A stretch of DNA of 64,000 nucleotides from positions 75,405 to 139,404 of the forward strand of contig CAYYDR010000001.1 of assembly GCA_964470695.1 (NCBI GenBank), in the 5' to 3' direction. Of this stretch, positions 20,055 to 21,527 are shown piece after piece; positions within the stretch are counted from its first letter, which is position 1; each line of letters opens with the position of its first letter. The notes beneath the pieces are model-generated. The model was not told the origin of the DNA and did not search any database. It worked only from the letters and a program-made list of their open reading frames with translations. The stretch comes from an uncultured Gammaproteobacteria bacterium. Its GTDB lineage: Bacteria > Patescibacteriota > Patescibacteriia > Patescibacteriales > UBA12465. The translations under genes and the position numbers were made by a program.

Positions 20055-21527
20055 TTATTTTATCAAAATCATCTTTTTTACTTCATGTAGACCGTTGGCG
20101 CTAAGTCTATAGGTGTAAATTCCGCTAGATAAGCCTTGGCCGTTAAAATTAACCTGATAGTTTCCAGCCGCCTTTGTTTCGCTAACTAATTCAGCCACCT
20201 CTTTCCCTAGAGCGTCATAAACTTTTAGGGTGACAAAAGTGGTTTTGGGAAGGCTGAAACTAATGGTCGTCGTTGGGTTGAAGGGATTGGGGTAATTTTG
20301 GTTAATTGATAATGAAGCGGGGATGGCAATATCTAACGATATCTCATCGCTATACTCATAGCTACCGTCATTATCAATAATTTTTAGCCGATAGTAATTT
20401 ATTCCTGAACTCGGGTTAATATCGGTAAAGGAATAAAATTTTGGCGAGTTGCTATTACCAGACCCAGGGACAGAACCTATTTTGATCCAATTTTGATCCA
20501 GGAATTTTTTTTCTATTTGGAACATGTAACTATTTACTTCTGTTGCCGTTTGCCAGTTTAAAATTGTCTGGTTATTAACTGAGCTAGCAGTGAAATTTTG
20601 CAATTCAACCGGCAGAGGAGCATCGGTAGCCGTAATATTGTAAACAGTTCCGGCTGTCATGGCTGTGGTATTTAACCCTGATGGCCAAATACCATCGGCG
20701 TCAGTAGCAAAACCGTAGCTAGTGCCGTCAGAATTAAAGGTTTCAATTCTGCGGATGCCGTTTGGATTTTCAACTGGCGCTACTAGCCCATATTTGCCAG
20801 CCACGTTATTAACTGTTGCATAGAAAGCTGGATAAGAATATGCGCCGCTATTTTCATTAATAGTGTTGCTTTCTACAATATAGCCATGTAAGGGCCTATC
20901 GGTGGGGCTAGGATTTTCCTGGCTATAGATAAAAATGAATTTTCCGTCAGGAGCTAGCGACGTGCCGCTAATGAAAGCACATTCATTATTCCAGGGCGAA
21001 GTAAATTCCCCAGAAGTTAGCGAAGTTGAGTTGCTGATAATTCTGCTGGAGCGAGAAACCGTGCCTGATCCATCGCCATTATCATGGATAAGACAGAGAT
21101 GAGCGCTGGCATACTGGAAGCGGTAGTTGCTTATAGGTACTATTACTACCCAAGTAGTTATTTCTCCAGCAGCGTTGGCAGTTATATCAGTAGAGCTAAG
21201 CATAGTTAGGTCAGATGCGGGAGTGTTATCCTGCCCGCTGGCTACTTTTAAGACCCCTCCATTATCGTATTCGGGGAAGTAGTAATAACCCACCCCGTAT
21301 TGGTTAAAGGAAGCTTCCGTAATATCATCAGCGCTAATCATGCCCGCCGCGAATTTATACGTGGCTGACGCGGTTAGTCCGCTTATTTTTACTCTGTAAG
21401 CAGTCGCCATACTGTTGGCACTGCTATAACTGTTGCCTCCGACATAGAGCGGAAATACTAATTCGGTCATTGTCGGTTGCGCCATAATTTTTATGGCTAA
21501 AAATAGCAAAAAAATCATTTTTTTCAT
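20055..21527 (-). CDS. Secreted protein with an FCB-type (T9SS/Por-like) C-terminal sorting domain
   Basis: Signal peptide [18 protein letters not shown]. Fn3-like module (VELQNFTA...[18 protein letters not shown]...YYRLK..D.DG). C-terminal ~80 aa [17 protein letters not shown]...[11 protein letters not shown]...GIYTYRL...KKMILIK. Confidence 0.7.
   Translation of the reverse strand: [490 protein letters not shown]

Follow-up and report, generated by a model that had tools for sequence, protein, structure and literature searches.

Why would a bacterium presumed to have a single membrane keep a protein that ends in an outer-membrane sorting domain? The question is raised by one gene in a 64-kb stretch of contig CAYYDR010000001.1 (the window, analyzed over its full 64,000 nt), which encodes a predicted secreted protein of 490 aa with a type IX secretion system (T9SS) type A C-terminal sorting domain (CTD). 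T9SS CTDs are treated as diagnostic of outer-membrane secretion in Bacteroidota and allied phyla of the Fibrobacteres-Chlorobi-Bacteroidetes (FCB) group. Here the CTD has long been kept intact by selection in a presumed single-membrane lineage of the candidate phyla radiation (CPR), and the analysis found no trace of the machinery. The best reading, considered probable, is that the protein is exported by Sec, acts independently of a T9SS as an adhesin-like surface or extracellular protein, and has its CTD put to a new use.

The open reading frame proposed in the initial annotation is present exactly as described (Table 1). Its product has four parts: a putative signal peptide, an all-beta N-domain of ~280 aa, a fibronectin type III (Fn3)-like module, and the CTD. 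The CTD matches PF18962 Por_Secre_tail at aa 412-487 (45.3 bits, cutoff 27, E=1.1e-11) and TIGR04183 'T9SS type A sorting domain' (41.5 bits, cutoff 23, E=9.4e-11). Its only solved relative by sequence is chain 8glj_D, a 'Por secretion system C-terminal sorting domain' (E=0.004). Because both profile matches lie above the curated cutoffs, the protein belongs, by profile criteria, to the T9SS type A CTD-bearing family, as had been claimed. With a profile made from FCB CTDs only, CPR CTDs scored a median of 131.5 bits, equal to FCB full-length homologs, and the window protein scored 139.8 bits. A database look-up of the exact protein sequence returned no identical record. Eight full-length orthologs are 50-57% identical to the protein; they measure 466-513 aa and align along its length. 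The shortest, P0004, has only 466 aa because its start was called late, and tblastn aligns its locus from residue 1.

The Fn3-like module is predicted to form a 7-strand beta-sandwich in the full-length AlphaFold2 model (pLDDT 82), and the PDB fold neighbors of that model are generic tandem Fn3/Ig proteins. The module is Fn3-like in fold and not a profile member: the Fn3 profile PF00041 gave no match to the protein at E<=1, and the Pfam scan gave the module a weak Tissue_fac match alone (E=0.014). Taken as one unit, module and CTD share 50-59% identity with the C-terminal ~190 aa of thousands of proteins whose N-termini vary, and several of these carriers are named as T9SS proteins of Ignavibacteria or Ignavibacteriales. 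The initial annotation had placed such a module directly before the CTD; its position (aa ~306-400), predicted fold, and co-occurrence with the CTD in FCB proteins all agree.

The N-domain modeled alone with AlphaFold2 has a pTM of 0.86 and a pLDDT of 82. Foldseek against the PDB returned weak matches (TM ~0.2-0.25) to two-Ig, pilin, and WxLIP-like proteins, and an N-domain profile had no match among PDB sequences. A word-indexed single-sequence search was too insensitive (9 matches) and was replaced by exhaustive phmmer and profile searches. The family found by exhaustive phmmer comprises 274 cluster representatives at 50% identity. Relatives align end to end at 27-45% identity, and 1-4 copies often occur within proteins of 1000-2700 aa that bear Por_Secre_tail and HYDIN/ASH Ig domains. 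Conserved motifs include RPL and GIRRIE. No catalytic-type residues were found among the conserved positions, and G, P, W, Y, and F account for most of the invariant ones. Upstream of the N-domain, the putative signal peptide shows an n, h, and c layout, its -1 and -3 positions being A and I, and a hydrophobic, signal-peptide-like N-terminus is common to all orthologs. The full-length AlphaFold2 model has an N-terminal helix with low pLDDT. The FCB-like signal peptide claimed earlier thus has the Sec layout, as judged by inspection.

The host was placed by its core genes. IF-2 of the window is 81-88% identical to that of 'Candidatus Falkowbacteria bacterium CG1_02_37_21' and of metagenome-assembled genomes (MAGs) named 'Patescibacteria group bacterium', which are GTDB species representatives. 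The next IF-2 relatives are other CPR, among them Gracilibacteria and Peribacteria. Against the same contigs, RNase Y is 81-88% and HU 93-95% identical. These identities identify the host as a Falkowbacteria-like CPR bacterium, in agreement with the CPR-like genome first proposed. Eight related loci from third-party MAGs (L005, L006, L007, L009, L012, L013, L015, and L022) are titled 'uncultured Gammaproteobacteria bacterium' and carry CPR-type infB/rny/HU loci. IF-2 of L005-L007 and L009 is 81-88% identical to that of the window. These 'Gammaproteobacteria' titles are evidently wrong.

The gene sits between rny and infB with flanks of 363 and 281 bp, matching the ~360 and ~280 bp first estimated. 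Related CPR genomes hold either an empty or a filled site. Six sister species (L005-L010) have rny and infB as divergent neighbors, with a 347-422 bp spacer between them that lacks the gene. Homology to these empty sites ends after GTTTGTAAAG (19965-19974) and restarts at the infB promoter TTGACT (21680). The insert between these points is ~1.7 kb and holds the terminator, the gene with its Shine-Dalgarno sequence, and a promoter-like element; nothing else is present. Seven distinct orthologs hold the gene between infB and rny at identical boundaries, in no fewer than nine independent assemblies (JGI, ENA, and Logan) made from different samples. The filled-site orthologs are P0004, P0007, P0005, P0008, P0001, and P0002, at loci L004, L085/86, L087/88, L089, L093, and L094/95. 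Because the same boundaries recur in independent assemblies, a chimeric contig, which the initial annotation had asked to be checked, is excluded. At L093 (268-2254, reverse strand), infB is called as two genes of 451 and 170 aa; tblastn likewise gives two pieces (residues 1-433 and 438-657), pointing to a frameshift or an assembly error in IF-2 at that locus.

Horizontal acquisition, suggested at first from the position of the gene, is strongly supported by the six empty sister sites and by the CPR sequences forming a clade in a family otherwise of T9SS-bearing diderms. Non-CPR full-length homologs, all of the FCB group, are 35-45% identical to the protein; those with names belong to Ignavibacteria, Bacteroidota, Bacteroidia, and Bacteroidales. 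They adjoin genes for TonB-dependent receptors, FecR/ECF sigma factors, a phosphate porin, a 1792-aa PorU-like C25 peptidase, and a heptosyltransferase, and several more Por_Secre_tail genes. Such neighbors indicate that these homologs lie in T9SS-bearing diderm genomes. In a phylogeny of the N-domain, all nine CPR sequences fall into one clade with a long stem. The CPR C-terminal modules are, with few exceptions, closest to one another. Together these two results argue that the whole gene came from an FCB donor once. In a neighbor-joining tree of rny and infB, the filled-site genomes group together beside two empty ones. GC content, third-position GC (GC3), and codon usage of the gene lie within ~1.3 standard deviations of the window genes. 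Since composition is ameliorated and synonymous divergence (dS) is saturated between most orthologs, the transfer appears to be old and not recent, with vertical inheritance since. One gain in the ancestor of the subclade followed by vertical descent would be the simplest history.

Neither a phage nor a mobile element was identified as the carrier. The flanks contain no transposase or integrase, and no repeats were apparent in the alignments, from which boundaries were read with no dedicated repeat search. A phage origin of the cassette was dropped, as only two weak partial matches were found, in huge uncultured phages. These phages, LR756500.1 (37021-37500) and LR756504.1 (309079-309474), have genomes of 462 kb and 636 kb in unannotated records. 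In each, an encoded stretch matches aa ~284-444 of the protein at 33-34% identity; this region spans the Fn3-like module and the beginning of the CTD.

Selection was measured in the trio of orthologous loci L085, L087, and L089 by rough Nei-Gojobori (NG86) estimates. The target protein has a nonsynonymous divergence (dN) of 0.10-0.16 and a dS of 0.6-1.5. Its omega is 0.06-0.14 for both N-domain and CTD; in the mid-domain, the one pair whose dS is not saturated gives 0.135. For rny and infB, dN is 0.006-0.014, dS 0.6-0.8, and omega 0.01-0.02. The nonsynonymous rate of the protein is thus ~10x that of its neighbors at dS of the same order. Between L085 and L089, RNase Y and IF-2 are 98% identical and the target protein is 74% identical. 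The CTD is the best-conserved part among CPR orthologs (60-92% identity), and taken alone has an omega of 0.07-0.14. Every domain, the CTD included, is under purifying selection with omega ~0.1. Low omega, full-length orthologs, and undiminished CTD profile scores indicate that the protein is functional and that its T9SS-type tail has not decayed. The purifying selection acting on the CTD backs the suggestion of the initial annotation that the domain may serve another purpose here. One ortholog is a mosaic: the mid-domain of P0008 (L089, 5779-7320) is 57-65% identical to those of P0007 (L085) and P0005 (L087), and its N-domain and CTD are 81-92% identical to theirs. The proportion of synonymous differences in this mid-domain is 0.79 with dN 0.27-0.34, against proportions of 0.4-0.65 in the flanking domains, which suggests recombination with an unsampled divergent allele.

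The machinery was sought around the gene. Pfam scans of 40 of the other window proteins, and reading of the remaining recognizable ones, found no T9SS core, lipopolysaccharide (LPS), or outer-membrane family in the window. The initial annotation had likewise seen no T9SS component there and had called the protein solitary. A hidden Markov model search of six-frame open reading frames from the window and 18 CPR loci (333 kb) found no second CTD protein; only the target and its orthologs were recovered. T9SS organisms typically carry tens of TIGR04183 CTD proteins. Within the window and the 333 kb, the context of a functional T9SS substrate is therefore missing, with no machinery and a single CTD protein. 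Among complete genomes, T9SS was found only in Bacteroidetes (PMC4793230), and CPR are proposed to be without an outer membrane (bioRxiv 10.1101/2025.01.22.634366). In the searchable literature on T9SS together with Patescibacteria, CPR, or monoderms, and on Falkowbacteria, no description of CTD proteins from CPR was found; a Chloroflexota paper that mentions T9SS had no bearing on the question. Relative to that literature, it would be new for a lineage believed to have no outer membrane to have domesticated a T9SS-type cargo gene. The initial annotation had listed failure of the CTD profiles, a chimeric contig, and a T9SS-bearing diderm outside the CPR as findings that would speak against it; none of these was found, and the closest relatives are CPR.

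The preferred reading joins these results as follows. A promoter-gene-terminator cassette would have been acquired once by the ancestor of a Falkowbacteria subclade from a T9SS-bearing FCB donor of Ignavibacteria or Bacteroidota type, and then inherited vertically at the rny/infB intergenic site. The signal peptide would direct Sec transport across the single CPR membrane, for which a T9SS is neither needed nor, probably, present in the rest of the genome. Since a single-membrane host with Sec export needs no T9SS, the former sorting domain would not be used as an outer-membrane export signal; it may be kept as a folded Ig-like domain, selected for a binding or structural role. T9SS export, PorU cleavage, and anchoring to anionic LPS are unlikely because no T9SS was found in the window, the CTD is the only one in 333 kb, and CPR are presumed to be without an outer membrane. 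Outside the cell, the protein would act as an adhesin-like all-beta surface or extracellular protein. The adhesin-like role is suggested by the all-beta modular build, the lack of catalytic-type residues, and the repeated N-domains in giant surface proteins.

Several points weigh against this reading. The 64 kb inspected belong to a genome of probably ~1 Mb, so absence of T9SS, Bam, Lpt, and LPS genes is not demonstrated for the organism. The N-terminus looks like a signal peptide by inspection. No transmembrane segment, LPXTG, LysM, or SLH anchor is evident in the protein, and with no cell-wall, S-layer, or membrane anchor a surface protein is not distinguishable from a released one. The neighbor-joining trees carry no support values, and NG86 estimates are rough at dS near 1. 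Finally, the strong conservation of precisely the T9SS-type motifs exceeds what a purely structural role obviously needs, and a recognition function is possible.

That last point leads to the alternative that survives best, a host-directed use of the domain, which we still consider unlikely. These Falkowbacteria would live as epibionts of T9SS-bearing Ignavibacteria or Bacteroidota, and the CTD would be recognized by the surface-exposed PorV shuttle or the PorU/PorZ attachment complex of the host. The protein would then dock on the outer membrane of the host, perhaps even through a covalent link, and serve in attachment or mimicry. The appeal of the idea lies in the conservation of precisely the T9SS-type motifs. 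Purifying selection acts on the CTD, which the FCB-only profile does not distinguish from FCB CTDs, and the C-terminal module retains 57-68% identity to Ignavibacteria-type proteins. A nonsynonymous rate ~10x that of the neighbors and a mosaic mid-domain are expected of an interaction or surface protein, and CPR are widely regarded as obligate epibionts (10.1101/2025.01.22.634366). Against it, cleavage by PorU would part the protein from its CTD, with nothing to tether the N-terminal part to the CPR cell. In known systems, moreover, the CTD meets PorV on exit from the SprA translocon, and PorV is not known to capture an exogenous protein. In its narrower form, a CPR epibiont with a captured host-type cargo gene whose sorting domain is an inter-species docking tag read by host PorV and PorU/PorZ, the idea is a shade less probable again.

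A genuine T9SS substrate, exported and anchored canonically, would require this CPR lineage to possess an outer layer and to encode a complete or reduced T9SS outside the window; this is very improbable. Intact CTD motifs under selection fit such a substrate, and only ~6% of the genome was inspected. The window nevertheless has no T9SS or outer-membrane family, and one CTD open reading frame in 333 kb contrasts with the typical tens. A T9SS requires ~10 core genes, including SprA of ~2400 aa, which are hard to fit in a genome of ~1 Mb. The gene is also missing in sister species, in a group proposed to be without an outer membrane. The single CTD, the sister species without the gene, and the small genome together make a T9SS elsewhere in the genome unlikely.

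Similarly improbable is a functionless passenger, an acquired gene under neutral drift whose CTD has not yet degraded. It would explain the fastest-evolving gene of the locus and its absence from sister species, but is contradicted by low omega (0.06-0.14 for N-domain and CTD, and 0.135 for the single unsaturated mid-domain pair) at synonymous divergence near or past saturation. Full-length orthologs, the conserved promoter and terminator, and undiminished CTD scores speak against it as well, and it is largely refuted. An assembly or binning artefact, in which an Ignavibacteria fragment was mis-joined into a CPR contig, would suit a gene family otherwise of FCB and has next to no probability, being refuted by identical junctions around seven distinct orthologous sequences in the independent assemblies, by flanks that align base by base with empty sites, and by a composition that fits the window.

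The gene was described as monocistronic with its own expression signals. The Shine-Dalgarno sequence and the intrinsic terminator, a hairpin followed by U8, are present, and every orthologous locus has a comparable hairpin with a T-run behind the stop codon. The terminator was missed by the scan because its loop is longer than 8 nt. The promoter is putative: its columns TTGC and TATT.T are invariant in an alignment of five orthologous loci, yet TTGCTT-17-TATTAT scores below the threshold of the sigma-70 consensus scan.

Table 1. Features of the rny-infB locus, in window positions.
Feature	Position	Strand	Basis
Secreted 490-aa protein, coding sequence with stop codon	20055..21527	-	Open reading frame list
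Putative Sec-type signal peptide, aa 1-16, then QP	21480..21527	-	n, h, and c regions judged by inspection
N-domain, aa 20-300, compact double beta-sandwich	20628..21470	-	AlphaFold2; no Pfam model, no solved relative
Fn3-like beta-sandwich module, aa 306-400 (VEL..F.A...W.T..E.N...F.IE...W..IG...YYRLK..D.DG)	20328..20612	-	AlphaFold2; weak Pfam match
T9SS type A CTD, aa 408-490	20058..20306	-	PF18962, TIGR04183, 8glj_D
Shine-Dalgarno sequence GAGGA, 4 nt before ATG	21532..21536	-	Read from sequence
Putative gene promoter, TTGCTT (21648-21653), 17 nt, TATTAT (21625-21630)	21625..21653	-	Conservation
Intrinsic terminator, 10-bp GC-rich stem (20003-20030, 10-nt loop), then U8	19995..20030	-	RNAfold, -14.2 kcal/mol
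Inserted cassette, ~1.7 kb	19975..21679	.	Alignment with empty sites L005-L010; absent from six sister species
infB promoter, TTGACT-17-TAATAT, right flank outside insert	21680..21708	+	Promoter scan; invariant in empty and filled sites
rny	18168..19691	-	
infB	21809..23782	+	

The rest of the window holds typical CPR housekeeping, peptidoglycan-synthesis, glycogen, and PilT-like genes, and its RNAs are a 23S-5S pair without 16S, seven ordinary tRNAs, and a group I intron. The rRNA arrangement is unlinked: 23S rRNA (3009 nt against a 2925-nt model) and 5S rRNA lie at 6373-9639 on the forward strand, and the 6 kb upstream of 23S contain a PilT-like ATPase gene and no 16S. A phosphoglucosamine-mutase-like open reading frame, called mechanically at 9595-11109 on the forward strand, starts inside the 5S rRNA (9525-9639). 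The gene probably starts at ATG 9676 (MPLIKS...); with that start, PGM_PMM is matched over all four domains. A 253-nt group I intron (Rfam RF00028, 35844-36095, 89 bits) splits a tRNA-Phe(GAA) gene at 35792-36117 on the reverse strand; the break lies in the anticodon loop, behind position 34. This tRNA is missed by default ARAGORN and reported as tRNA-Phe(gaa) i(34,253) with the intron option. A 236-aa HTH_23 open reading frame (35010-35720, reverse strand) lies 124 nt downstream of the split tRNA-Phe and overlaps the start of a tRNA-Pro; it is possibly an intron-associated gene of homing-endonuclease-like or transposase-like type.

Set beside known systems, the protein resembles T9SS type A cargo of Bacteroidota and Ignavibacteriota in its putative signal peptide, functional domains, and CTD with typical motifs, and in sharing the Fn3-like and CTD C-terminal cassette of thousands of Ignavibacteria-type proteins. 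Unlike that cargo, it belongs to a Falkowbacteria-like CPR host, has the sole CTD in the 333 kb, and has no T9SS component in its window. Its N-domain aligns end to end, with shared motifs, to the ~270-aa beta-sandwich module of giant FCB surface proteins. There the module often occurs in several copies within 1000-2700 aa and among HYDIN/ASH Ig repeats, whereas here it stands alone in a CPR protein of ~500 aa. Gram-positive tandem-Ig pilins and adhesins (SpaD, FimA, and WxLIP) likewise combine an all-beta double-sandwich with Sec export, predicted for the present protein, in cells without an outer membrane. With TM ~0.2-0.25 and no LPXTG/sortase signal, WxL domain, or sequence similarity, the likeness is a functional analogy only.

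A structural role for the Ig-like CTD would be mundane. The docking-tag reading, if true, would name the host group as Ignavibacteria or Bacteroidota, and a T9SS in the full genome bin, if true, would challenge the view of CPR as lacking an outer membrane. Either the CTD has a second, T9SS-independent function, which matters for reading CTD matches in metagenomes, or these CPR interact with T9SS-bearing organisms. The gene is a concrete marker of transfer from FCB bacteria to CPR, and as to which partners an uncultured Falkowbacteria clade may have, it offers a rare clue that can be tested.

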